Part shown: positions 11,641 to 52,191 of the stretch, piece after piece
Position numbering within the stretch: the first letter of the stretch is position 1
Layout: each line of letters starts with the position of its first letter
Assembly (NCBI GenBank): GCA_017528315.1
Contig: JAFXOW010000059.1
Coordinates: forward strand, 91,382 to 155,381
DNA length: 64,000 nucleotides
Source of the DNA: Bacilli bacterium
Lineage (GTDB): Bacteria > Bacillota_I > Bacilli_A > RF39 > UBA660
Direction: 5' to 3'
The notes under the pieces: model-generated
Told to the model about the DNA's origin: nothing
What the model saw: the letters and a program-made list of their open reading frames with translations, nothing else
Databases searched by the model: none
Position numbers and translations under genes: made by a program

Positions 11641-11670
11641 CAGCGTGTAAAATTTGTGTAAATAAAATAA

Positions 11671-11699
11671 GGTTTGAAAAGTTTGTTTCAAATCTTTTT
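11671..11699 (+). terminator. Intrinsic terminator
   Basis: Stem GGTTTGAAA (11671-11679) / TTTCAAATC (11686-11694) with one G-U pair, followed by TTTTT. Confidence 0.6.
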
Positions 11700-11869
11700 C
11701 TTTTAAAAATGAAAAATTTACTAAAGTAATTTATAATATTAAAAATCTAATAAAAATAAAAAGTCAATTTTTAATTAAATTTCTTAATTTGACAAATAAA
11801 TTTAGAAGAAGTTATAGTAACCATTAATGGGAATTATTATAGTTTAATTTAAGAAAGGGAAGATTTTAT

Positions 11870-12777
11870 ATGAATTACTATAATGAAATAAAGAATAAAT
11901 TAATTAATAATGAATTATATAAGAAAGTAAAAGATTATTCTAAAAATAGAAATGATTTAAATACCTATTATGAAGTAGGTAAATTGTTGGTTGAAGCTCA
12001 AGGTGGTGAATCAAGAGCTAAATATGGAGATGGTTTAATTAAAGAGTATTCTAAAAATTAACTTTAGAATTAAATAGAGGATATACAACAACTAGATTAA
12101 GATATATGAGAAGATTTTACCTTGTTTTCTCAAAATGTCCGACGATGTCGGATATTTTGAGTTATTCACATTATTGCGAGCTTATATGGTTTGATGAAAT
12201 TAATAAAATTAATTATTATATAAATATAAGCATTAATCAACATTTATCTGTTAGAGAACTAAGACAAAAAATAAAATTAAATGAGTATGAAAGATTACCA
12301 GAAGATACTAAAGATAAGTTAGTTGCTCATGAAGAAGTAGTAGTATCTGATTTTATAAAGAATCCAATTGTTATTAAAAATAAGTTTAATACTGATGAAA
12401 TATCAGAAAAAATGTTAAAGACTTTGATACTTGAGGATATATCAAGTTTTATGAAAGAGTTAGGTAATGGATTTAGTTTTATAAATTCAGAATATAAAAT
12501 AAAAATAGGAAATAATTACAATTATATAGACTTATTGCTATTTAACTATATATATAATTATTTTGTTGTAATTGAATTAAAAGTATCAGAATTAAAGAAA
12601 GAATATATAGGACAAATAGAAGTTTATATGAATTATATTGATCAAAATATAAAGAAAGTTAATCAAGATAAAACGATTGGAATTGTTATTACTAAAAAAG
12701 ATAACAAATATATTATGTCTTATTGTAGTGATAAACGTATATTTAATACTAATTATAAATTAGAGGGAGTAATATAA
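11870..12777 (+). pseudogene. YhcG-type PD-(D/E)XK nuclease (DUF1016 family), split by a 1-nt frameshift in an A5 run
   Basis: ORF 11870..12061 (...GKLLVEAQGGESRAKYGDGLIKEYSKN*) continues in the adjacent frame from 12055 as KLTLELNRGYTTTRLRYMRRFY..., as in intact DUF1016 proteins. The C-terminus has the nuclease core IDLLLF...VVIELK. One extra A at 12053-12057 would restore a single ORF. Confidence 0.7.
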
Positions 12778-34051: not shown

Positions 34052-34406
34052 AAAATACTTGGGCAAACGCTATATTCAAGTAATATAGAGGAAAGTCCAT
34101 GCTCACACAGTCTGAAATTGATTGTAGTGTTCGTGTTAAGGGAAAAAATAACCTTAAGTAGCTTTAAGCTAACGGCTATGAAATAACCTAAGGTATTCTA
34201 TGGTTAGAGTAATTATAAAAGTGCTATAGTGATGAAGAATCTGGAAACGGAGGAAGTGGAACATAGTAAACCCCACGAGTGAGAAACCCAAATTTTGGTA
34301 GGGGAGCCCCGGAAGTGGAATCAAACACAACCTGGGATTGTAGAAATACAATAGATAAATGTTTGCCACCTTTTTAAGGTACAGAACATGGCTTATAAAG
34401 TATTTT
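34052..34406 (+). ncRNA. rnpB: RNase P RNA, bacterial type B
   Basis: Universally conserved GAGGAAAGTCCATGCTC (P4 5' strand) near the 5' end and ACAGAACATGGCTTA near the 3' end. The P1 helix pairs AAAATACTT (34052-34060) with AAGTATTTT (34398-34406). Local G+C is clearly above the surroundings. Confidence 0.9.
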
Positions 34407-34428: not shown

Positions 34429-34920
34429 ATGAAAGAAATTGGAGAATATTTAAAAACTGAACGCAAGAAAAATGGCGTTAGTATTAGTGAAGCAAGTGAT
34501 GATTTAAATATTAATGAAACATTACTAAAAGCAATAGAAGATGGGAATTCTAAAGCCTTTAAAGATATTTTTGAACTTAAAGAAATGGTTAGAAATTATT
34601 CTAAATATTTAGGACTTGATGTTGAATCAATGCTTGATGAATTTAATGATTATATCTTTGAAAAAACTTCTAAAATATCACTTGAAGATATTAAAAATGC
34701 TAGTAATAATCATGGAAAACTTGAAGAAACTACTGTTAAAGTATCTTCTCCTTATACTAAAATAAAACATACTAGATATGATGTTGCACCTATTGTTTTA
34801 TTAGTTGCGATTTTATTATTTATATCTTTAATTGTTTATTTAGCACTTAAAATTATTAAAAATGAACCAGTTATAAGTGAAGAATTACAAGGAAAGGAAG
34901 TAGTTTATGAGAACATCTAA
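34429..34920 (+). CDS. rodZ: RodZ-like cytoskeletal protein (HTH, TM, short C-terminus)
   Basis: N-terminal Xre-type HTH (IGEYLKTERKKNGVSISEASDDLNINETLLKAIEDGN) and one TM helix near the C-terminus. It sits upstream of a pgsA-like gene, as ymfM-pgsA does in Bacillus. Confidence 0.65.
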   Translation: MKEIGEYLKTERKKNGVSISEASDDLNINETLLKAIEDGNSKAFKDIFELKEMVRNYSKYLGLDVESMLDEFNDYIFEKTSKISLEDIKNASNNHGKLEETTVKVSSPYTKIKHTRYDVAPIVLLVAILLFISLIVYLALKIIKNEPVISEELQGKEVVYENI

Positions 34921-35476
34921 TAAGATTTCTATAATTAGAATTGTTTTGACTTTTATTATTATACTTAGTTGTACTTTTCCGTTTTATAGTTTAGGAATAA
35001 ATGCTCCTAAATTAAATATTGGAGGAGTAATTGTAGAATCACTTTATTTATTATCGGGAGTAATATTTATTCTTACTATAGTTTTAGACTTATTAGGAAG
35101 TGGCTCCAGGGCAGAAAGTGAAAAAGAAAAAAATTTAGATATGTTAGCTGATAAATTTTTAATAAATTCCGTTTTAATAATTTTTGCAGTTCGTGGATTT
35201 ATACCAGTTTTAGTACCAATTATTTATATAATTCGTGATGAGATAGTATACGTCTTAAAAATAGATGCAGCTAGACGTGGTAAAATTTTAAATAAAATAA
35301 CAGCTAGTCGTGTTAAAACATTTGCAATGTTATTTGGTCTTTGTTTAATGTTCTTTTATAACTTACCATTTGAACTAATAAATATAAAAATGGCTGACTT
35401 CTTAATTTATTTTGGAACCATCATGGCAATTGTTTCTGGAATAGAATATTATAATTTATGGAGAAAAGTTAAATAA
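34907..35476 (+). CDS. CDP-alcohol phosphatidyltransferase-family protein in the pgsA position, catalytic motif degenerate
   Basis: Overall PgsA-like pattern (NKISIIRI..., LADKFL, IIYIIRDE, NLPFEL, VSGIEYY). The D-x2-D-G-x2-A-R-x8-G segment reads DLLGSGSR-AESEKEKN and is shorter. Confidence 0.55.
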   Translation: MRTSNKISIIRIVLTFIIILSCTFPFYSLGINAPKLNIGGVIVESLYLLSGVIFILTIVLDLLGSGSRAESEKEKNLDMLADKFLINSVLIIFAVRGFIPVLVPIIYIIRDEIVYVLKIDAARRGKILNKITASRVKTFAMLFGLCLMFFYNLPFELINIKMADFLIYFGTIMAIVSGIEYYNLWRKVK

Positions 35477-35552
35477 AATAGTAAATTTTAAAGAATAAAC
35501 TTGAATAATTTTAAAACATATAGTATATTATTTTTAGGGAGTGATATTTTAA

Positions 35553-35762
35553 ATGTTACACGATATATTAATGGTTGTAATTGGATTAATTATAGGAGGA
35601 GTAATTGGCTTCTTTGTATCCAAAAAACTTATGACCAAATATTTAAAGAAAAATCCACCAATAAATGAAGATATGATTCGAACACTTATGAGTGGAATGG
35701 GTAGAACACCTACTCAAAAACAAGTTAATCAAATGATGAAGCAAATGCAAAAATATATGTAA
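35553..35762 (+). CDS. yneF: UPF0154 family small membrane protein YneF
   Basis: An N-terminal TM helix followed by [34 protein letters not shown], the characteristic YneF sequence. Confidence 0.8.
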
Positions 35763-35794
35763 ATCGTAAAAGAGACAATAATAGTAATTTTATT

Positions 35795-35945
35795 TTAAGA
35801 GAGTAATTGGATGGTGAAAAATTACAATAAAACCTATTTATCTACTCTTTAGAGAACCCAATCAGTTTCGGAAATATCCGTTATCAAAAAAAGTGAAAAA
35901 AAGAATGGTACAGTCATAAGACGTCTTTAGTTGCCGTTCTTTTTA
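35795..35945 (+). promoter_or_regulatory. T-box riboswitch leader, serine (UCU) specifier
   Basis: The stem I base AAGAG (35797-35801) pairs with CTCTT (35845-35849). The distal hairpin GTAATT/AATTAC has a GGATGGTGAAAA loop. The specifier TCT (35841-35843) is followed by the conserved purine A. A T-box-like AATGGTACAG holds UGGU at 35906-35909. The terminator AAAGAATGGTA (35900-35910) / TGCCGTTCTTT (35932-35942), with two G-U pairs, is followed by TTT. serS lies downstream. Confidence 0.7.
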
Positions 35946-35961
35946 ATTTAAAGGAGAATAT

Positions 35962-36465
35962 ATGTTAAAAAGTTATTTTGAAGAAGAAGAATATAATAGA
36001 TTAAAGGAAAGTGATGATTTATTATATAAAACATTAGAATTGGTATTAATGTTATTTGATGATAAAGTTGACAAAGGAGGACTTCCGTATTTTAATCATT
36101 TATTAAAAGTTTATTCCAAAGTCTCGGATTATGATGAAAAGATAATTGCTTTACTTCATGATGTTGTAGAAGATACAAATGTTACATTTGATGATCTAAA
36201 AGAATTTGGTTATAATGATGAGATAATAAAGTCATTAACATATCTTACTAAGAAAAAAGGTGAATATTATCCCGATTATATTGATAGAATAATTAATAGT
36301 GGTGATATTAAAGCCTTGAATGTAAAATTATCAGATTTAAAACATAATATGGATATAACAAGAATTAAAAATCCAACTGTTAATGATTATGAAAGAATAA
36401 GCAAAAGATATGAACCTGCTTATATAAAAATAAAAAATAAAATAGATGAAATAGAGGAGAGATAA
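35962..36465 (+). CDS. HD-domain protein resembling the RelA/SpoT (p)ppGpp hydrolase domain (small alarmone hydrolase-like)
   Basis: FNHLLKV...LLHDVVEDT (HD motif), then KLSDLKHNMD. A 167-aa single-domain protein. Confidence 0.65.
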   Translation: MLKSYFEEEEYNRLKESDDLLYKTLELVLMLFDDKVDKGGLPYFNHLLKVYSKVSDYDEKIIALLHDVVEDTNVTFDDLKEFGYNDEIIKSLTYLTKKKGEYYPDYIDRIINSGDIKALNVKLSDLKHNMDITRIKNPTVNDYERISKRYEPAYIKIKNKIDEIEER

Positions 36466-40934: not shown

Positions 40935-41011
40935 TGGTAGCGAAAGGGGGATTCGAACCCTCGACACTGCGGGTATGAACCGCATGCTCTAGCCAACTGA
41001 GCTATCTCGCC
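40935..41011 (-). tRNA. trnM: tRNA-Met (anticodon CAU, elongator-type), CCA encoded
   Basis: The reverse complement reads GGCGAGATAGCTCAGTTGGCTAGAGCATGCGGTTCATACCCGCAGTGTCGAGGGTTCGAATCCCCCTTTCGCTACCA. It shows a cloverleaf with a GCTC/GAGC D-stem, a TGCGG/CCGCA anticodon stem, a TTCATAC loop and a TTCGAAT T-loop. It lacks the three G-C pairs of initiator tRNA. A lysidine-modified Ile2 tRNA cannot be fully excluded. Confidence 0.88.
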
Positions 41012-44663: not shown

Positions 44664-45143
44664 ATGAATTTTAATGATATAGCAATTAATATTATTAATA
44701 ATGAAAAGTATAAAAGTTTAGATTTAGATTATCATCATGGATTAACTCGATATAAACATATTATGCATGTAGCACGTGGAACATATATACTTAGCAAATT
44801 ATTAAAACTTGATTATATAAGTGCAACAAGAGGAGCTTTACTTCATGACTTTTTTAATGAAGAAGAATATTTAGATGTAAAGGGACTAAATAAACCAAGA
44901 ATACATCCTTTTCTTGCTTTAAATAATTCTTTAAAAAAATATAATTTAAATCTTAAAGAACAAAATATTATTATAAGTCATATGTATCCAATTGGATTAA
45001 TAAAACCATTGTATTTGGAATCGTGGGTGGTCACAATTGTTGATAAGACAGTTGCAACTTATGAGTATTTAAATTATAAATTTAAAGATAAATTTGCAGT
45101 TTATATTTTATTTATATTAAATTTTCTAAACATGAAAATTTAG
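44664..45143 (+). CDS. HD-domain phosphohydrolase (159 aa)
   Basis: HHGLTRYKHIMHVA...GALLHDFF...SHMYP...IVDK. Confidence 0.55.
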   Translation: MNFNDIAINIINNEKYKSLDLDYHHGLTRYKHIMHVARGTYILSKLLKLDYISATRGALLHDFFNEEEYLDVKGLNKPRIHPFLALNNSLKKYNLNLKEQNIIISHMYPIGLIKPLYLESWVVTIVDKTVATYEYLNYKFKDKFAVYILFILNFLNMKI

Positions 45144-45211: not shown

Positions 45212-46426
45212 ATGTTTGCTAGTGTTGATCTTGGTAGTCATAGTATAAAGATAATTGTTTGCAGAAAAGTTGATGATAAATATTGTGTTTTAGCATCTAC
45301 TTGTGTAAAATCAATGGGAATTAAACGTGGATTTATTAAAGATAAAGAACAAGCTTTAAATAGTTTAAAAGAAGCTATTAATAATATAGAAAAAGATTTG
45401 GGTATTAAATTACATAAAGTATTACTTAGTTTTCCTTTATATAATTTAAATACAACTATTGAATCTGGAGAAATTGCCGTTTCCAAAGTTGTATCAGGTG
45501 AAGATATTCGAGAAGTTATTAATAAAACAGTTAAAGAAAACATAGATTCTAATTCTGAAATTGTATATTTGGAACCAATTGTCTTTGAAGTAGATGGAGG
45601 TATTCAAGTAGTTGATCCTAAAGGACTTGAGACTAATAATTTAAAAGCTCGACTTGCTGTTTCAACTATTGATAAAAGTATTTTGTATGAATATTTAGAA
45701 CTTTTAAATGAAGCAGAACTTTCAGTAGATGATTTAGTATATGGAATAGTTGGAGATTACATGATAGGTTCTAATCGTGATATTGAGAGAAAATTAGGAG
45801 TTGTTGTCAATATTGGATATTCAAAAACTGAAATAGCTATCATTAATAAAGGAATACTATTAAAAGGAACAATTTTACCAATTGGAAGTCGTAAAATTGA
45901 TAAAGATATTAGTTATGTATATAAGTTAGATAGGGAAACATCTCGCGAATTAAAAGAAAATTTTGCTAATTCAAGTTCTTTATATGCAGATAAAAATGAT
46001 TATTTAGAAGTTACTAATATATCTGGAGAATCTGTAAATATAAATCAATTTGAAATAAGTCAGGTTGTAGAAGCCAGATTAGAAGAATTAATAAAAAGTG
46101 TAAAATTAGAGATAAATAACTTAACAAATAGAGAAATAAGTTATATAATTATAACTGGTGGCATTACCAATATGGCAGGATTTGCCTATCTTTTAGAAAA
46201 TGAATTTGATGAAGAAAAAATAATTTGTAATGTTACACCAATGGGTATAAGAAGTAATATATATTCTACAGGTCTTGGTATAATAGAATGTATAGATAAG
46301 AAAATGAAGTTTAGAGAAATAGATTATAATATGTTTGGTGAAGATGAAATAAAAAAACTAACAGCAAAAGAAAAAGTATGTAGAGATAGTTTAATTAGTA
46401 AACTAGAGGCTTACTTGAAAGATTAA
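45212..46426 (+). CDS. ftsA: Cell division protein FtsA
   Basis: Actin-fold pattern ([39 protein letters not shown]). It lies immediately upstream of ftsZ. Confidence 0.85.
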
Positions 46427-46437
46427 GGAGGAATTAT

Positions 46438-47517
46438 ATGCTAAATGGGTTAGAAATGGATCAAATGGCTAAGATAAAAGTAATTGGTGTTGGTGGTGGT
46501 GGAGGAAATGCCGTTAACCGGATGATTGAAACAGGAGTTAAAGGCGTTGAGTTTATTGTTGCTAATACTGATTATCAAGTTTTATCAAAGTCGAAAGCTG
46601 ATGTAAAAATACAACTTGGCAAACAATTAACAGATGGGCTTGGAGCTGGTGGAAAACCAGAAATAGGACGTGAGTCAGCTGTTGAATCTAAGAAAGAAAT
46701 AGAAGAAGCGTTAAAGGGTGCTGATATGATTTTCATTACCTGTGGAATGGGTGGTGGAACTGGTACAGGAGCAGCATCGGTTATTGCTGAAATTGCTCAA
46801 GGATTAGGTGCTTTAACGGTTGCTATTGTAACCAAACCATTTACATTTGAAGGCAAACGACGTATGGAAAATGCTATGCAAGGTTTATCAGAACTTAAAA
46901 AGCATGTTGATACTTTAATTGTTATCCCAAATGATAGATTAAGAGAAATTATTGATAAGTCAACACCTTTACTTGAAGCCTTTAAAGAAGTTGATAATGT
47001 TTTAAGACGTGGGGTTCAATCAATTTCTGATTTGATTGCCGTTGTAGGACTTGTTAACTTGGATTTTGCTGATGTTAAAGCAGTTATGGAACATAGTGGT
47101 AATGCTATTATTGGTATAGGTATAGGAATGGGTGAAGATAGAGCTATTGAGGCTGCCAAACAAGCCGTATCAAGTCCTCTTCTTGAAACTTCTATTACGG
47201 GAGCAACGGATGCCATTATTAATATAACAGGTGGAGTTAATTTAACTTTATTTGAAGCTGAGCAAGCAGCCGAAGTTGTTCGTAATGCATCTAACAATGA
47301 TATAAATACAATATTCGGTTCCGTTATTAATGAAAATTTAACTGATGAAGTAATTGTTACCGTTATTGCAACTGGATTTGATAAATCAAAAAAAGAAAAA
47401 ACCATTTATGATCAACAAGCGAATAATAAGGAAATAACTATTATGGATGATGACGACGATGACGATGCTGATTCAGAATACGATTTTCCACCATTTTTAA
47501 GAAATAGAAATTTTTAA
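46438..47517 (+). CDS. ftsZ: Cell division GTPase FtsZ
   Basis: [17 protein letters not shown], tubulin signature [16 protein letters not shown], an acidic linker (D-run) and the C-terminal peptide DFPPFLRNR. Confidence 0.96.
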
Positions 47518-47531
47518 AAAATAATAAAATT

Positions 47532-47558
47532 GAATGTTTTTGATAACATTCTTTTTTT
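47532..47558 (+). terminator. Intrinsic terminator of ftsZ
   Basis: GAATGTT (47532-47538) / AACATTC (47545-47551), followed by TTTTTTT. Confidence 0.7.
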
Positions 47559-47614
47559 ATCTTTTAATTCAGTTTGCTTAATAGTTTATTAATGTGATAT
47601 TTTTTAAATTTATT

Positions 47615-47643
47615 TTGACAAATATTATGTTGTAATATATAAT
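47615..47643 (+). promoter_or_regulatory. SigmaA-type consensus promoter for the orphan gene
   Basis: TTGACA (47615-47620), 17-nt spacer, TATAAT (47638-47643). Confidence 0.6.
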
Positions 47644-47657
47644 ACTAACTTAATGGA

Positions 47658-48539
47658 GTGATAATAATGATTAGTAGTACCGAATTAAATTATGTTTCAT
47701 GTCGTCCCAAAGATATTCCTTTTCCTGGTGAAAAGTATGCCTCAAATGCTTTAAATATGTTAAGAGAAGCATTTAAAATATATGAAGAAAAATATCAGGA
47801 TAAATATTTTACTATAGTATTAAGTAATGGTGAAGAGTTGAAATTTTCTATTAAAACTGGCAACTTATCTCATTTATTAGGAATTGATATTAATTATCTT
47901 TTAACAGATGAAATGGCTGTAACTCGTGATTTTGTATTGGGTTATGGATTATATGATTCTGTTAAAGCATATGATCTTCTTAAAATTATATTGGATAAAA
48001 CAAGTGAAATAATCCAAAATGATAGCAATTATAATAATTATAAAATATTAAATTATTATAAAATATATTTAAAATGTTATGTATTTAAAAATTTAGTTGA
48101 TTTTACATCTTTTAATTTTGGTTGTATAAATTTTGACAAAAATACTTTTTATCAATGTACTGGAAAAGACTATCGACCAAATTCTAATAAAATATTATTT
48201 ATGCCAAGTTATGAAAAATTAGTTCCTTACTTTATGATGGGATTAATATCTTTTGACAGTAAGAAAAATTGTGCTCCTGAAACTTTATTTGCAGCCCGTG
48301 ATCATTATGACTATTTTGTTGGACAAGAATTATTAATTCCAACCGAAATTATTACTCATGATAAAAATAATTTATCTAAAATAACTGCAAGTAGTTCTGA
48401 TAAATTATATTTACTTAAAATGTATCGTTCTATTATTGAGTATTATGATACAAATTCTTATATTAATATTTTTAATGATTATGAAAATATGATTATAAAT
48501 GATAGCTTAAAAGAGAAAAAAATGAGTTCTAAAATTTGA
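47658..48539 (+). CDS. Hypothetical protein (293 aa), orphan; faint resemblance to Barnase/EndoU/RelE-fold PBECR-type nuclease domains
   Basis: Long ORF with SD GGAGTGA and its own consensus promoter. The segment FTIVLSNGEELKFSIKTGNLSHLLGI recalls the strand-HL.G motif of PBECR-like domains, but this is memory only and unverified. Confidence 0.55.
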   Translation: MIIMISSTELNYVSCRPKDIPFPGEKYASNALNMLREAFKIYEEKYQDKYFTIVLSNGEELKFSIKTGNLSHLLGIDINYLLTDEMAVTRDFVLGYGLYDSVKAYDLLKIILDKTSEIIQNDSNYNNYKILNYYKIYLKCYVFKNLVDFTSFNFGCINFDKNTFYQCTGKDYRPNSNKILFMPSYEKLVPYFMMGLISFDSKKNCAPETLFAARDHYDYFVGQELLIPTEIITHDKNNLSKITASSSDKLYLLKMYRSIIEYYDTNSYINIFNDYENMIINDSLKEKKMSSKI

Positions 48540-48564
48540 CCTTTAACATAAAATATGATATAAT
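48536..48564 (+). promoter_or_regulatory. SigmaA-type promoter with extended -10, driving the long leader/ncRNA
   Basis: TTGACC (48536-48541), 17-nt spacer containing TG at 48556-48557, TATAAT (48559-48564). The -35 box overlaps the stop codon of the upstream ORF. Confidence 0.6.
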
Positions 48565-48570
48565 TATTAT

Positions 48571-49045
48571 CGTGGTGCATTATTCTAGTCAAATAAATGT
48601 ATTCGAAGATGGGGCTAAAAATCCATTAATTGTGCTACAAGATACTTTATATATTATGCTTTTCTTGCCCAAAGAAGGGTGTTTATATAATTTTAGATTT
48701 AAGGAAAATTTATAATGGCATATAAACGTATCCTTAAATCATATCGTAATAAATTAAGCATATGTCGTGAGTGATTATTTGGGATAATTAATTGATGATA
48801 TTAATTTTGAAAAAATAATTGCAAAAGCGAATAAAAATACAATTTATTTGTTTGGGAAAACCTCTAGAATGTTTGTATTATAAAGATTGGAGTGCGGACT
48901 AAGTGGCGATCGAGTAATCAATACCGGTAACGTTTGATTGATTTCTTTAAAGGGAAACTGCCTAAAGGTAACTAAAGGTAGAAATCAGAGAAACTCAACT
49001 CGACCTCAAGCCGTAAAATTAATTTATAGTATACCACAAAATAAT
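48571..49045 (+). ncRNA. Candidate large structured RNA or long 5' leader of unknown class
   Basis: No ORF of 60 codons or more on either strand across 514 bp. A promoter lies just upstream. The 3' third is about 42% G+C by hand count. A three-way junction can be drawn from stems 48910-15/48998-49003, 48916-21/48934-39 and 48940-46/48980-86. I could not match any riboswitch or ncRNA consensus that I know. Confidence 0.45.
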
Positions 49046-49059
49046 TTAAGGATGTGTAT

Positions 49060-49572
49060 ATGAAAAGTGACAATTGGATTATAAAAGTCTTTTTATTCAC
49101 TTTTTTTATTACTCTAATTGTATCGGGAAGTGCTAATTATATTGCAAGTAACTCTAATATGATAGTTTTAATAATTATAACTATTTTAATTATTATACTT
49201 GGAATAATATTTGATATGATTGGAACTAGTATCTTAACAGCAAATGAAGCTAATTTCCATTCTATGGCATCAAAAAAAGTTAAAGGTAGTAAAAAAAGTA
49301 TAAGATTAATTAAAAATAAAAGTAATATAGCTAATTTTTGTAATGATGTAATTGGAGATATCTGTGGTATTATATCAGGATCTATGGGAGCAATTATTTC
49401 ACTTAATATTTCTAATTTATTGAAAATAGATTTAACAATAAGTGCATTAGTAATTGCTAGTATTATTTCAAGTATTACCGTAGTAGGTAAAGCAATAGGT
49501 AAGAAATATGCAACTAATAATAGTGATAATATAATATTACTAGTAGGTAAGACTTTAAGTATATTTGAATAA
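49060..49572 (+). CDS. Small 4-TM membrane protein resembling a stand-alone DUF21 (CNNM/CorB-type) transmembrane module
   Basis: Four predicted TM helices. The pattern FDMIGTSILTANEANF...KGSKKSIRLIKNKSNIANFCNDVIGDICG mirrors DUF21 (..S..E.A......l....G...A..l..L...p...L.t.qiG.t..G). No CBS or CorC domains follow. SD AAGGA is at 49048-49052. Confidence 0.5.
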   Translation: MKSDNWIIKVFLFTFFITLIVSGSANYIASNSNMIVLIIITILIIILGIIFDMIGTSILTANEANFHSMASKKVKGSKKSIRLIKNKSNIANFCNDVIGDICGIISGSMGAIISLNISNLLKIDLTISALVIASIISSITVVGKAIGKKYATNNSDNIILLVGKTLSIFE

Positions 49573-49639
49573 AAATAGACTTAAAGTTTTTTATATTTCT
49601 TTTGTATATAAAATGTGCTATAATACTTTCGTGATTTAT

Positions 49640-51781
49640 ATGAAGAAATGTTTTAAAAGTGAAATTTTAGCACCATGTGGTGATATGGATGCTTTTTATG
49701 CTGCAATTGAAGCAGGGAGTGATGCTGTATATCTTGCTGGTAAAATGTTTGGTGCTCGAGCTTTTTCCAAGAATTTTACTAATGATGAACTTATATATAT
49801 TATTAACTATGCTCATAAATACGGAGTAAAGGTGTATGTAACTTGTAATATTTTAATATATGAGTCGGAAGTAGAGAAGTTTTTAGAATTTGTTGAATTT
49901 TTACATAAAAATCAGGTTGACGCAATAATCATGCAAGATATTGGAATGATTGATCTAGTTCATAAAATATATCCTAATTTAGAAATTCATGGTTCAACTC
50001 AGATGCATATTCATAATTTAGATGGAGCACTGATGGCCGAAAAATTAGGTTTAAAAAGAATAGTATTAGCTAGGGAAACACCACTTGAAGTAATTCGTGA
50101 TATAAAAAAGAAAACTAATTTAGAAATTGAAGTCTTTGTTCAAGGAGCTTTATGTGCATCATTCTCTGGAATGTGTTTATTTGCAAGTAGTATAGGACCA
50201 AGAAGTGGAAACAGGGGTACTTGCTCTGGATGCTGTAGATTACCATATGATGTTTTAGATAAAGATGGAAATATTATAAATGATGGAAAATATCCATTAA
50301 GCATGAAAGATTTAATGACTATAAATGATTTAGATAAATTAATTGATGCTAATATAGATAGTTTTAAAATTGAAGGTCGTATGAAAAGCAAAGAGTATGT
50401 TTATACAACTGTTTCAATGTATAAGTATACTCGAGATAACTATTTAAAGACAGGGAAAGTAATTGTAAATAAAGAAGATCTTTATAAATTAAACAATATA
50501 TTTACTAGAACTTATACCAGAGGATTTATTTTAAATGACGTGAATGTTACTAATGATAAATCGCCAAATCATATTGGAGTTTTGATTGGTAGGGTAATTA
50601 AATCTAATAAAAATTATATTGAAATAAAATTAGATGAAAAAGTTTTGATTCATGATGGTTTAAGAATTATAAATAATAATTTTGAATATGGTTTCAATTT
50701 AAATGAATTTAAAATAAATAATAAACAAGTTTATTTAGCTAATAAAGAAGATATTATCTCTTTAAAAGTTAAAAAACAAATACCTATAAATAGTTTAGTT
50801 TATAGAACTTTTTCTAAAGAAATAGAAGATGAAATAAGTGATAAAATAAATAAACATGTAAGAAGGGTTCCTATTTCTTTTTCTATTAAAATTAGAAAAG
50901 ATATTCCTGTTTCATTAGTTATAAATGATGGTAATTATGAAATAGAATTATTAGGTAGTATTCCAAATGTTTCAATTAATAAATCTATAACTATAGATGA
51001 TATTAAAAAGAAATTAGCTAAAATAAATAATACAATTTATTCTGTTACTGATATTAATATAGAACTTGATAATGATTTATTTGTTCCTATAAGTGAAGTA
51101 AATCATTTAAAACAAAATATTTTAGAAGAATTAGATAAAAAAAGAATTAATTTATATAATAAAGAACTTATTAAAGAAAAATATACTTGTTTATTGGATG
51201 ATTATCCTAAAGTAAATGAGTATAGTATTCTTACCAATAATAAAAATAATATAACTGATAAATATTCAATTATTTATTCTGAAATGTTAGATAATACCAT
51301 TAGAAAGATACCTAAAGTGATAGAAAATTATAGTTTATATAATAAAAATAAAGAATATTTAGTAGGAGAACTTGGAAGTTTAAATAAACTTAATAATGTC
51401 ATATGTGATTATTCTTTTAATGTAACTAATTCTTATACAGTAGCCTTTCTTCATTCTTTAGGAGTGAAAAGAGTAACTTTATCAGTTGAATTAATTGATA
51501 AAGAGATAGAAAATTTAATCAATAATTATCATGATAGATATCATAAACATCCTAATTTAGAAGTAATTAAAAAAACTACTAAAGAACTAATGGTTTTAAA
51601 ACTTAATTTAAATAAATATGGAGATGTATATCATTTAAGAGATAGATTTAAAAATAATTATAAAATTATAAAAAAAGATAAATATTTCTATATTTATGAT
51701 TATAAAGAAACTATTCGTGAAAGAGAAGATAATTACTATTTTAATATGGGAATTAATTATTTAAGAGATGAAATATTGTAA
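49640..51781 (+). CDS. Peptidase U32-family protein (long form with C-terminal extension)
   Basis: The U32 signature region EVFVQGALCASFSGMCLFAS is preceded by SEILAPCGDMDAFYAAIEAGSDAVYL. The start at MKKCFK follows a TGCTATAAT extended -10 element. Confidence 0.85.
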   Translation: MKKCFKSEILAPCGDMDAFYAAIEAGSDAVYLAGKMFGARAFSKNFTNDELIYIINYAHKYGVKVYVTCNILIYESEVEKFLEFVEFLHKNQVDAIIMQDIGMIDLVHKIYPNLEIHGSTQMHIHNLDGALMAEKLGLKRIVLARETPLEVIRDIKKKTNLEIEVFVQGALCASFSGMCLFASSIGPRSGNRGTCSGCCRLPYDVLDKDGNIINDGKYPLSMKDLMTINDLDKLIDANIDSFKIEGRMKSKEYVYTTVSMYKYTRDNYLKTGKVIVNKEDLYKLNNIFTRTYTRGFILNDVNVTNDKSPNHIGVLIGRVIKSNKNYIEIKLDEKVLIHDGLRIINNNFEYGFNLNEFKINNKQVYLANKEDIISLKVKKQIPINSLVYRTFSKEIEDEISDKINKHVRRVPISFSIKIRKDIPVSLVINDGNYEIELLGSIPNVSINKSITIDDIKKKLAKINNTIYSVTDINIELDNDLFVPISEVNHLKQNILEELDKKRINLYNKELIKEKYTCLLDDYPKVNEYSILTNNKNNITDKYSIIYSEMLDNTIRKIPKVIENYSLYNKNKEYLVGELGSLNKLNNVICDYSFNVTNSYTVAFLHSLGVKRVTLSVELIDKEIENLINNYHDRYHKHPNLEVIKKTTKELMVLKLNLNKYGDVYHLRDRFKNNYKIIKKDKYFYIYDYKETIREREDNYYFNMGINYLRDEIL

Positions 51782-51849: not shown

Positions 51850-52191
51850 ATGCTAGATATTAATAGAATGATAGAATTAGAAGAAATGGCTAAGAAAAAT
51901 AATATTATATATCCATTAACGCTTGATGAATGGAGATATATTGAAAGAGCTCAAAAAATACCTTATGAATTAGCAAAGGATGGTATATATAGTTTAGGAG
52001 AATGTTGCTTACCATTTGAACAAATAAAATGTATATATTCTTTGTTAACAAAATGTAAATTTACGGAGGAAGAATTAAAACAAAGATTAAATGATGTTTA
52101 TTCTATAATGGAATATTATCATGAAAAATATATTAATTTTGTTAAAGAACAAAAAAGAATGGTAAAAAGAATAAATAATTTTTCTAATTAA
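51850..52191 (+). CDS. Hypothetical protein (113 aa)
   Basis: ORF with SD GGAAG/AAAGG upstream. No motif recognised. Confidence 0.45.
   Translation: MLDINRMIELEEMAKKNNIIYPLTLDEWRYIERAQKIPYELAKDGIYSLGECCLPFEQIKCIYSLLTKCKFTEEELKQRLNDVYSIMEYYHEKYINFVKEQKRMVKRINNFSN

Follow-up and report, generated by a model that had tools for sequence, protein, structure and literature searches.

The segment 48572-49037 (+ strand) of the window, by which we mean the whole 64,000-nucleotide stretch of DNA that was analysed, is almost certainly an ole gene encoding a compact, 'variant 2' OLE RNA. This RNA is 466 nt long and extends from the 5′ to the 3′ strand of helix P1. The reading frame that follows, 49060-49572 (+ strand), is with the same confidence oapA, encoding the protein partner of OLE RNA. 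OLE denotes an ornate, large, extremophilic RNA. The locus belongs to a known family and to an already described variant of it; it adds no RNA class and its novelty is low.

Identification of the RNA

The Rfam model RF01071 (OLE) matches positions 48556-49053 (+ strand) with a score of 220.9 bits and E 6.7e-61, roughly four times the gathering score of 50 bits. The match is not truncated and covers model positions 1-616 of 616; homology to OLE spans the entire model. The extent is wider than that of the RNA itself on account of poorly conserved flanks within RF01071. The conserved OLE blocks GUGGUGCA..UAUUCUAGUCA, GGCUAAAAAUCC, GCCCA, AAUGGCAU, UGCAAAAGC, GGAAAACCUCUAG, AGUGCGGACUAAGUGG, UUUAAAGGGAAAC and GACCUnAAGCCG are all present and in order, and of the 108 consensus base pairs that are retained, 99 form in 48572-49037. 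Helices P1 to P6, the base of P9 and the whole 3′ domain are kept; P7, P8, the distal part of P9 and one small hairpin are absent. No result speaks against this assignment.

OLE is the only significant Rfam family in the region. A permissive search of 48400-49200 returned in addition just a chance tmRNA fragment (7.8 bits, E 0.8). ROOL, GOLLD and raiA gave no match in gathering or permissive mode, M-box and other Mg2+ or metal riboswitches gave none at E ≤1 with permissive filters, and a search for tRNA and tmRNA with ARAGORN found none.

An earlier note on this DNA, made by eye, had remarked that the arrangement recalls OLE and oapA, and both the RF01071 match and the OapA hallmarks of the downstream protein confirm it. 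Its suggestion of a divergent member, shorter than the usual OLE, is likewise borne out, with a 442-nt core of the kind published as variant 2 in the available text of PMC11332333. Three other options were raised there: that this is a different, new ornate RNA, that it belongs to a riboswitch class so far unknown, or that it is a novel cis-regulator acting on a CNNM-like gene. None finds support beside a match of 220.9 bits. The Rfam scan that it proposed matches OLE and not ROOL, GOLLD, raiA or M-box; a confident match was to mark the RNA as known rather than novel, and known it is. The by-eye reading was nonetheless sound: the correct family was indicated alike by the promoter, the G+C island, the stems and the gene partner, and every coordinate and string in it is exact (promoter, Shine-Dalgarno sequence, ATG, stems A to C, both copies of CTAAAGGTA and the ATTCTAG/CTAGAAT pair).

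Promoter, transcript and oapA

The gap that holds the RNA has no reading frame of 60 codons or more, as claimed earlier; the longest encodes 59 aa. It is the longest ORF-free stretch of the window, the next truly non-coding stretch being rnpB. Two other large gaps of the window contain small ORFs, of 69 and 63 aa. The segment 48891-49013, described in the note as about 42% G+C, measures 42.3%, compared with 26.0% for the 5′ part of the RNA and 24.6% for the whole window.

A predicted sigma-70-type promoter occupies 48536-48564 (+ strand), with the -35 box TTGACC at 48536-48541, the -10 box TATAAT at 48559-48564 and a 17-nt spacer that includes an extended -10 TG at 48556-48557. The near-consensus character attributed to it holds, with 11 of 12 positions matching in addition to the TG. 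At 25% G+C such a match is by itself weak evidence, since 21 sites of this quality are found against 22 expected. What is decisive is conservation. Of 80 compact loci, 79 have a promoter that matches at 10 or more of 12 positions and is placed 7 to 11 nt ahead of the conserved GUGG, and 75 of these include the TG, whereas a comparable promoter occurs in 2% of shuffled upstream regions. This conservation among relatives, rather than the 11/12 score, indicates that the ole promoter is real. The predicted transcription start, at about 48570-48572, coincides with the first base of P1. By comparison 22 of 96 full-length OLE loci have a comparable promoter, and many of these RNAs sit inside long operons without a promoter of their own.

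No terminator was found between the OLE RNA and the oapA ATG, in keeping with the earlier reading; the Shine-Dalgarno sequence AAGGA (49048-49052, + strand) lies 10 nt past the end of P1 and leaves no space for one, and the ATG is 22 nt past P1. A terminator-like site on the + strand at 48666-48681 was rejected, as it is the conserved tip of P5.1. In the absence of a terminator between the two genes the primary transcript is predicted to be ole-oapA. Judged from sequence, the compact-clade ole-oapA is a self-promoted two-gene cassette.

The product of oapA is a 170-aa membrane protein. Its hydropathy profile has four segments (approximately residues 3-29, 34-59, 97-115 and 117-148), and the loop 61-95 carries eight Lys or Arg residues and one Asp or Glu, which agrees with the small four-TM protein with a basic loop expected downstream. 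The sequence DVIGD at residues 96-100 is the DxxxD motif, described in the available text of PMC11332333 as specific to OapA and absent from CNNM domains. An OapA homologue is found directly downstream of OLE in 153 loci, and DxxxD is present in all 153. Against the Pfam CNNM family (PF01595) the protein scores 27.1 bits over residues 39-169 (E 3.9e-6), 1.3 below the cut-off of 28.4. A search of NCBIfam, a library without an OapA model, gave just a meaningless 16-bit HgcAB match. Searches of Pfam, NCBIfam, PHROGs and PADLOC with the 293-aa ORF upstream and with two small ORFs nearby gave no match. No KOW (OapB) or L7Ae (OapC) domain was detected in 20 small or unassigned ORFs scanned within the 64-kb window.

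Could the RNA act primarily in cis, as a riboswitch-like 5′ leader that controls oapA expression and perhaps senses Mg2+, and not in trans or as a scaffold? The single predicted transcript, with no terminator and about 22 nt from RNA to oapA start, would suit such a role, as would the possible CNNM-like nature of OapA and the link drawn in the literature between the OLE particle and Mg2+ tolerance. We consider it highly improbable. The homologous OLE is described in the literature as abundant and stable, in physical contact with OapA and located at membranes, and the many full-length OLE genes embedded in long operons without their own promoter do not fit a leader. No riboswitch family matches even at E ≤1, and there is no expression platform, neither a terminator/anti-terminator pair nor a Shine-Dalgarno sequence within any conserved helix. 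A structured OLE RNA that partners OapA remains the preferred reading.

Secondary structure and covariation

Covariation was assessed in an alignment of 78 compact OLE relatives. Over the whole RNA 89.8% of cells pair, compared with 37-44% in slid controls, and double, compensatory changes are seen at 74 of 119 pairs. The covariation score is 0.334 against 0.06-0.07 for slid controls, a value reached by none of 500 shuffles. The 466-nt RNA is also more stable than expected (MFE z = -3.3, with 0 of 100 shuffles equally stable) and its thermodynamic fold contains 112 of the 133 reference pairs. Helices outside the Rfam consensus, P3 and a P4a-like helix, covary too.

P1, a name that we infer from the literature, pairs GUGGU (48572-48576, + strand) with ACCAC (49033-49037). 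It is 99.2% paired, the innermost pair being U-A in 40 sequences and A-U in 38. A 6-bp P1 clashed with an Rfam pair and was set aside; a P1 of 5 bp that stacks on the Rfam helix, with pair 48576-49033 in place of 48874-49033, agreed better with the covariation. P2 pairs AUUCUAG (48582-48588, + strand) with CUAGAAU (48864-48870), the long-range pairing of the earlier note, and covaries: it is 98% paired and its central pair is UA in 28 sequences, GC in 23, AU in 13, GU in 11, UG in 2 and CG in 1. P3/P3.1 pairs 48590-48603 (+ strand) with 48836-48850 to form 14 bp with a one-base bulge, A48842. It is 80.8% paired, 12 of the 14 pairs have changed on both sides, the covariation score is 0.379 compared with at most 0.10 in slid controls, and the MFE fold reproduces the helix. 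In the literature it is P3 that has been suggested to span the membrane.

The P4 hairpin (48608-48627, + strand) forms all six pairs, is 99.8% paired with two covarying pairs, and carries a conserved A-rich loop, GCUAAAAA (48614-48621), that is invariant in the 78 sequences; in cryo-EM structures this loop is dimer bridge B1. Next, 48631-48636 (+ strand) pairs with 48757-48762 in a helix that encloses P5 and P6 and probably corresponds to the P4a/OapA-site region of the literature. This helix is MFE-predicted and 82.7% paired, four of its pairs switch between GC and AU or UA and CG, and the covariation score is 0.42. The P5/P5.1 hairpin (48646-48691, + strand) forms 17 of 19 pairs, shows 11 covarying pairs in the alignment, and ends in the conserved loop GCCCA (48667-48671), which in the OLE dimer is base-paired to the P6.1 loop of the other RNA molecule. 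P6/P6.1 (48696-48740, + strand; helices 5 and 6) forms 14 of 14 pairs, with 11 covarying pairs in the alignment, around the conserved loop AAUGGCAU (48714-48721).

A 23-nt linker (48741-48763, + strand) follows at the position of J6/7, P7 and P8 in full-length OLE. About 80 model positions are here replaced by 18 unaligned bases, as local deletions of 44 and 36 positions in the cmscan alignment with nine bases in place of each. From the P6.1 loop to P9 there are 45 nt; the medians are 47 in compact and 126 in full-length RNAs. The second strand of the OapC kink-turn has been assigned to J5/6 or to J6/7, two papers disagreeing on the point; the J6/7 region, one of these published sites, is rebuilt in compact OLE.

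P9 (48764-48831, + strand) is truncated but retains the base and the conserved internal loops, and helices 7 and 8 covary. The distal part is a 7-bp stem, AAUUAAU/AUUAAUU, with a 7-nt loop, UGAUGAU, and is without the palindromic kissing-loop tetranucleotide. P9 spans 61 nt, where the median is 45 in compact and 91 in full-length RNAs, and 37 model positions are reduced to seven bases. A central GGCC, GATC or AGCT occurs in P9 of 53 of 86 full-length sequences and in 1 of 82 compact ones. As read from these sequences, the compact clade is without the P9 kissing loop, one of the bridges of the RNA dimer. A small hairpin of the Rfam consensus, UGG-GAAAA-CCU (48853-48863, + strand), lies between the 3′ strand of P3 and that of P2 and has a nearly invariant GGGAAAACCUCUAG; the Rfam hairpin that comes after it (model 424-435) is missing from this RNA and from the whole compact clade.

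The 3′ domain (48875-49032, + strand) is built on two outer helices, 48875-48884/49023-49032 and 48893-48897/49011-49015 (helices 11 and 12; 98.7% and 100% paired, the former with nine covarying pairs), and includes the invariant block AGUGCGGACUAAGUGG (48891-48906). It encloses a four-way junction (48910-49003, + strand) of P12.2, P13, P14 and P15, named after the OapB-OLE structure paper, in which all pairs form. The earlier note had drawn a three-way junction of stems A, B and C and proposed that their covariation be examined. The three stems are P12.2, P13 and P14, and all covary in the 78 sequences, but the junction is the published four-way one. P12.2, stem A (48910-48915/48998-49003, + strand), is 100% paired with two covarying pairs. 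P13, stem B (48917-48938, + strand), has a bulge and a GUAA tetraloop (48927-48930), and seven of eight pairs covary; the palindrome TACCGGTA, previously placed in its loop, instead supplies the distal P13 pairs and the tetraloop. All eight pairs of P14, stem C (48939-48946/48980-48987, + strand), covary. The tandem copies of CTAAAGGTA are present, but rather than a plain repeat they make up the opposing strands of the P14.1 hairpin (48960-48979, + strand), with a GUAA loop and two A-A mismatches. P15 is GAG-AAA-CUC (48988-48996, + strand). The GGG/CC mini-hairpin also proposed lies outside the conserved structure and was rejected: the CC is part of P14.1 and in most relatives GGG changes to GAG without compensation.

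The compact clade

OLE lengths are bimodal, with 82 species at 400-460 nt and the remainder at 500-660 nt. The core here, 442 nt, is about 120 nt shorter than the median of 565. RF01071 scores are 160-226 bits for compact relatives and 506-554 for full-length OLE, against 221 here. Some 80 species-level genomes share the compact form. The closest loci come from gut, rumen or digester MAGs labelled Bacilli, Erysipelotrichaceae, Mycoplasmatota or Tenericutes, and NCBI labels among the relatives include Mollicutes, 'Mycoplasma sp. CAG:956' and 'Clostridium sp. CAG:628'. In one relative (L173) the OLE is 91.5% identical and FtsZ 93%. The host is presumably a reduced-genome member of the Bacilli from an anaerobic gut, and the 24.6% G+C and the labels of the relatives hint at GTDB order RF39 or a similar lineage.

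This matches OLE variant 2 of Fernando & Breaker (2024, mSphere, PMC11332333), in whose available text conserved nucleotides are kept and P7 and P8 are entirely missing. According to that text the variant occurs in RF39 gut symbionts, uncultured gut Bacillota of reduced genome, with oapA adjacent and with no OapB or OapC seen nearby, both being largely missing from RF39. Loss of the palindromic P9 loop and a near-universal own promoter go slightly beyond the published variant 2 text available, and its figures may show them.

Might the RNA be a decaying, non-functional remnant in a shrinking genome, P7, P8 and P9 having been lost as selection lapsed? The genome is very AT-rich (24.6% G+C), the OLE has 30.5% G+C, the lowest of 180 examined, and by published accounts such lineages largely lack OapB and OapC. 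Even so, this is less credible still than a cis-acting leader, and we give it scarcely any weight. The same deletions are common to about 80 species, and the rest of the RNA is under purifying selection with compensatory changes. The invariant blocks, the promoter (79 of 80 loci) and an intact oapA with DxxxD are kept, and a local G+C content of 42% against a background of 25% speaks of constraint. Least of all, with a negligible probability, is a small protein gene hidden in the gap: a 59-aa TTG ORF (48536-48715) and a 41-aa ORF (48938-49063) exist mechanically, but both are broken up by 1- and 2-nt indels among the eight closest relatives, substitutions compensate pairs and are not codon-periodic, and the 59-aa ORF would begin within the -35 box.

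Proposed function

The proposal draws on work on Halalkalibacterium halodurans, a distant alkaliphile whose OLE needs OapB and OapC, and on Clostridium cryo-EM structures (PMC12265935, PMC12286853). By analogy, the functional OLE RNA proposed here would fold as two domains connected by the 14-bp P3 helix. OapA dimers would bind it through their basic cytoplasmic loop and the bound RNA would be located at, or possibly through, the cell membrane, OLE having recently been proposed as an integral membrane RNA. The particle may help the cell under such stresses as alcohols, cold, excess Mg2+ and poor carbon sources. In the host lineage it is probably pared down to RNA and OapA. Since the P9 kissing loop is gone, any dimer must use the A-rich P4 loop and the P5.1 and P6.1 loops.

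A more speculative proposal, which we regard as rather unlikely, is that ole-oapA in the compact clade is a minimal system of two components, assembled in cis. On insertion into the membrane, nascent OapA could capture the transcript that encodes it; one strong conserved promoter, no terminator and 22 nt between RNA and oapA start would make this possible. The particle would then need no accessory proteins and would function either as a monomer or with a reduced number of dimer bridges, a suggestion that stems from the loss of the P9 kissing loop and P7 and from OapB and OapC being reported largely missing, with neither found in the window. If true, compact ole-oapA would define the irreducible functional core of OLE.

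The locus is a clean example of a natural minimal OLE, a 466-nt RNA with its own promoter and OapA alone alongside. Compact OLEs reveal that the RNA can do without P7, P8, one small hairpin and distal P9 with its kissing loop, and that P1 to P6, the 14-bp 'spanning' helix P3, the P4, P5.1 and P6.1 loops and the four-way junction are never lost. Such compact forms would also be convenient constructs for structural and binding work.

Comparison with known systems

ROOL, GOLLD, raiA and the metal riboswitches resemble this RNA as large, promoter-driven, ORF-free, structured RNAs of locally enriched G+C content, but they have a gene partner other than oapA. The TM domain of CNNM-MpfA proteins (PF01595) shares with OapA four TM helices, a basic cytoplasmic loop and the weak but specific CNNM match. 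OapA here differs in having DxxxD and in lacking CBS and CorC domains, and for the latter reason is not a CNNM/MpfA Mg2+ transporter.

Full-length OLE (RF01071; H. halodurans, Clostridium acetobutylicum) has P1 to P6, the P9 base, P10 to P15 and the invariant blocks in common with the compact RNA, together with the A-rich P4 loop, complementary P5.1 and P6.1 loops, GNRA-capped P13 and P14.1 and a downstream oapA. At about 600 nt, against 466 nt here, it comprises some 25 helices including P7, P8 and a long P9, whereas the compact form is without P7, P8, distal P9 and its kissing loop, and the hairpin at model 424-435. The OapA beside full-length OLE has a median length of 200 aa, compared with 174 aa in the compact clade and 170 aa here. 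OLE hosts are usually anaerobic and/or extremophilic Bacillota; the present host is presumably a mesophilic gut organism and no extremophile. Shortness is no bar to membership of the family, because the departure is the published definition of variant 2. Within that clade this copy stands out for its G+C content, the lowest, and for a P9 tip longer than most (61 nt against a median of 45). With variant 2 itself it shares the loss of P7 and P8, the conserved core and the adjacent oapA, and nothing essential differs.

Identification of the RNA

The sequence from 48000 to 49800 was read and every string quoted in the earlier note checked against the window; all coordinates proved exact. The gap lies between the stop codon of the upstream open reading frame (ORF) at 48539 and the next ATG at 49060, with no ORF above 59 amino acids on either strand. 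Since the two other large gaps, 11641-12105 and 35477-35961, hold ORFs of 63 and 69 amino acids, 48540-49059 is indeed the longest ORF-free stretch in the window. The 63-residue ORF (11870-12061, + strand) is followed 44 nt further on by one of 223 residues (12106-12777, + strand) and the pair looks like a single gene that a frameshift or stop has interrupted. Most of the 485-bp gap separating genes 34907-35476 and 35962-36465 is taken up by the 69-residue ORF (35553-35762, + strand), whose product has a single hydrophobic segment at its N terminus. The G+C enrichment also holds: 42.3% for 48891-49013, compared with 26.0% for the 5′ part of the RNA and 24.6% for the window.

Three matches to Rfam emerged when the entire window was scanned: a tRNA (40938-41011, − strand), the class B RNase P RNA, rnpB (34055-34400, + strand, 273 bits), which has the G+C contrast ascribed to it in the earlier note (37.6% versus 24.6% for the window), and the large structured RNA OLE (RF01071; 48556-49053, + strand). 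The OLE match covers all 616 model positions (1-616) and, at 220.9 bits (E 6.7e-61), lies above the gathering score of 50. A permissive search confined to the OLE region gave no further family of note. The earlier note had raised both OLE and a novel class; the former lead was correct and, by that note's own reckoning, so confident a match makes the element known. The Rfam alignment contains every conserved OLE block and departs from the 616-position model by three local deletions. Approximately 80 positions between helices P6 and P9 are reduced to 18 nt, 37 in distal P9 to seven, and a 12-nt hairpin at 424-435 is missing. Of the remaining consensus pairs 99/108 form in the window sequence.

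The ole-oapA transcription unit

On sequence grounds the gene at 49060-49572 (+ strand, 170-residue product) is oapA, which encodes the membrane partner of OLE. OapA has four hydrophobic segments; eight Lys/Arg and one acidic residue lie in the loop at residues 61-95, and the match to the Pfam CNNM domain scores 27.1 bits, 1.3 bits under the cut-off. Residues 96-100 are DVIGD, and a DxxxD motif is described as setting OapA apart from CNNM domains (PMC11332333). An OapA homologue lies directly downstream of OLE in 153 other loci, all 153 with DxxxD.

The TTGACC-17-TATAAT promoter, which has an extended −10 TG, scores 11/12. The scan found 21 such sites compared with 22.4 in shuffled sequence, so in this AT-rich DNA the match alone proves nothing. 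It is conservation that supports the promoter proposed earlier: in 79/80 compact loci, those with a short OLE, one scoring at least 10/12 sits 7-11 nt upstream of a conserved GUGG, 75 of the 79 with the extended −10 TG. Such a score occurs in only 2% of upstream regions after shuffling and in only 22/96 full-length loci. The predicted start is the first base of P1. As previously noted, no intrinsic terminator precedes the oapA ATG; the single terminator-like + strand site, at 48666-48681, is instead the conserved tip of one of the RNA's hairpins. P1 ends 10 nt from the Shine-Dalgarno sequence and 22 nt from the ATG, and the primary transcript should, as predicted from these signals, be ole-oapA. 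That OLE is a cis-regulatory leader is very unlikely, an extra role of this kind being allowed for; it matches no aptamer, an expression platform is lacking, and members of the family are known to work as stable ribonucleoproteins.

In the window ftsA-ftsZ-orf293-ole-oapA (45212-49572) are co-directional, whereas in the five closest relatives ftsZ and ole-oapA occupy opposite strands. The surroundings of the cassette have been inverted or otherwise rearranged locally, which is consistent with a self-contained unit that tolerates rearrangement. The 293-residue orf293 (47658-48539, + strand), between ftsZ and ole, has a perfect 12/12 promoter at 47615-47643. It matches nothing in Pfam, NCBIfam, PHROGs or PADLOC, nor by tblastn in any of 178 OLE loci, the five closest relatives included, is split into 152 and 98 residues in metagenome contig L004, and looks like a species-specific orphan. 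Two small ORFs of conserved position, one of 159 residues before ftsA (44664-45143, + strand) and one of 113 after a U32 peptidase gene (51850-52191, + strand), have no match in Pfam, PHROGs or PADLOC.

Distribution of compact OLEs

The invariant block AGUGNGGACUAAGUGG, used as a probe of species-representative genomes, gave 119 loci and its clade-specific extension 111. Core lengths, taken from the 5′ GUGGUGCA block to the 3′ GACCUnAAGCCG block, are bimodal, 400-460 nt in 82 species and 500-660 nt in the rest; the window OLE, at 442 nt, has the lowest G+C content of all those measured (30.5%). Compact relatives score 160-226 bits against RF01071, compared with 506-554 for full-length OLEs. 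The compact loci derive from gut, rumen and digester metagenome-assembled genomes (MAGs) labelled as uncultured Bacilli, Erysipelotrichaceae, Mycoplasmatota, Tenericutes, Mollicutes, ‘Mycoplasma sp. CAG:956’ and ‘Clostridium sp. CAG:628’. The nearest OLE, from a roe-deer gut MAG, is 91.5% identical, and FtsZ is 93% identical to that of the window in five relatives. Conservation across about 80 species leaves very little likelihood that the window OLE is a decaying remnant.

Nine contigs of ‘uncultured Muribaculaceae’ (Bacteroidota) MAGs carry a compact OLE and oapA that differ little from their counterparts in Bacilli MAGs; the OapA of one (L152) scores 223 bits against that of the window. Mislabelling or contamination of these bins is the probable explanation, and the OLE literature discards non-Bacillota matches on the same ground. 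In two compact loci an L31-Firmicutes ribosomal-protein leader lies some 700 nt from OLE (L118, 1263-1293, − strand; L194, 1773-1803, + strand).

Covariation and secondary structure

Seventy-eight distinct compact OLEs were aligned with MAFFT, not fitted to structure, and the Rfam consensus was projected onto the alignment from the window row with two outer helices added. Standard pairs occupy 89.8% of cells, compared with 37-44% when partners are slid, both sides change at 74/119 pairs, and the covariation score is 0.334 against 0.06-0.07 for slid controls; none of 500 shuffles matched any of these measures. Substitutions that compensate pairs, together with 1-2-nt indels among the closest relatives, reduce the chance that the gap codes for protein to almost nil.

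The stems drawn by eye in the earlier note correspond to OLE helices, named here after the OapB-OLE structure paper. Stem A is P12.2, 100% paired and mostly invariant with two covarying pairs; stem B is P13, with a GUAA tetraloop cap, one bulge and 7/8 pairs covarying; stem C is P14, where all eight covary. The tandem CTAAAGGTA repeat is real, its copies forming the two arms of P14.1 with a GUAA loop and two conserved A-A mismatches. The supposed three-way junction is four-way, as the 3-bp P15 adds an arm. The long-range ATTCTAG/CTAGAAT pairing, which we take to be P2, is genuine, its central pair occurring in six different forms. A terminal 5-bp helix (48572-76/49033-37), taken to be P1, switches from U-A to A-U in half of the sequences. 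Support likewise extends to two helices that the Rfam consensus omits. P3/P3.1 (48590-603/48836-850) has 14 bp, 12 of them covarying, and a single-base bulge; the other (48631-36/48757-62), probably the P4a region, closes P5-P6. An unconstrained minimum free energy fold recovers 112/133 reference pairs (z = −3.3).

Comparison with known OLE particles

Homology, structure, partner gene and promoter of the window OLE were shown by this analysis; the mechanism is drawn by analogy from genetic and biochemical studies of H. halodurans and from cryo-EM work. On that basis the RNA would fold into two domains joined by P3, with OapA dimers binding it and holding it at the membrane, and the particle would be required when cells face stress from alcohol, cold, Mg2+ or the carbon source. 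In the host lineage the particle is probably reduced to OLE RNA and OapA.

The window OLE keeps P3, proposed as the membrane-spanning helix, the A-rich loop of P4 (GCUAAAAA) and the complementary loops P5.1 (GCCCA) and P6.1 (AAUGGCAU); the P4, P5.1 and P6.1 loops form intermolecular bridges in cryo-EM dimers. Both GNRA-capped hairpins of the 3′ domain remain, and with them the primary OapB site, which lies on P13. Missing are P7, P8, distal P9 and the small hairpin of model positions 424-435. P9 spans 61 nt, against medians of 45 nt in compact and 91 nt in full-length OLEs. A palindromic GGCC, GAUC or AGCU makes the P9 kissing loop (Kretsch et al. 2025); it occurs at the P9 centre in 53/86 full-length but 1/82 compact OLEs and not in that of the window. 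The compact clade thus lacks one dimer bridge, a loss we did not find stated in the published text, figures aside.

The window element therefore belongs to a known family and, within it, to a published variant, and its short length is already covered in the literature. Variant 2 OLE is described as ‘commonly found in RF39 organisms’ and as ‘entirely lack[ing] P7 and P8’ (PMC11332333); its hosts are given there as uncultured symbionts of the gut whose reduced genomes are largely without the accessory proteins OapB and OapC. This description fits the window RNA, and the value of the locus is as a clean, natural, minimal OLE-OapA cassette.
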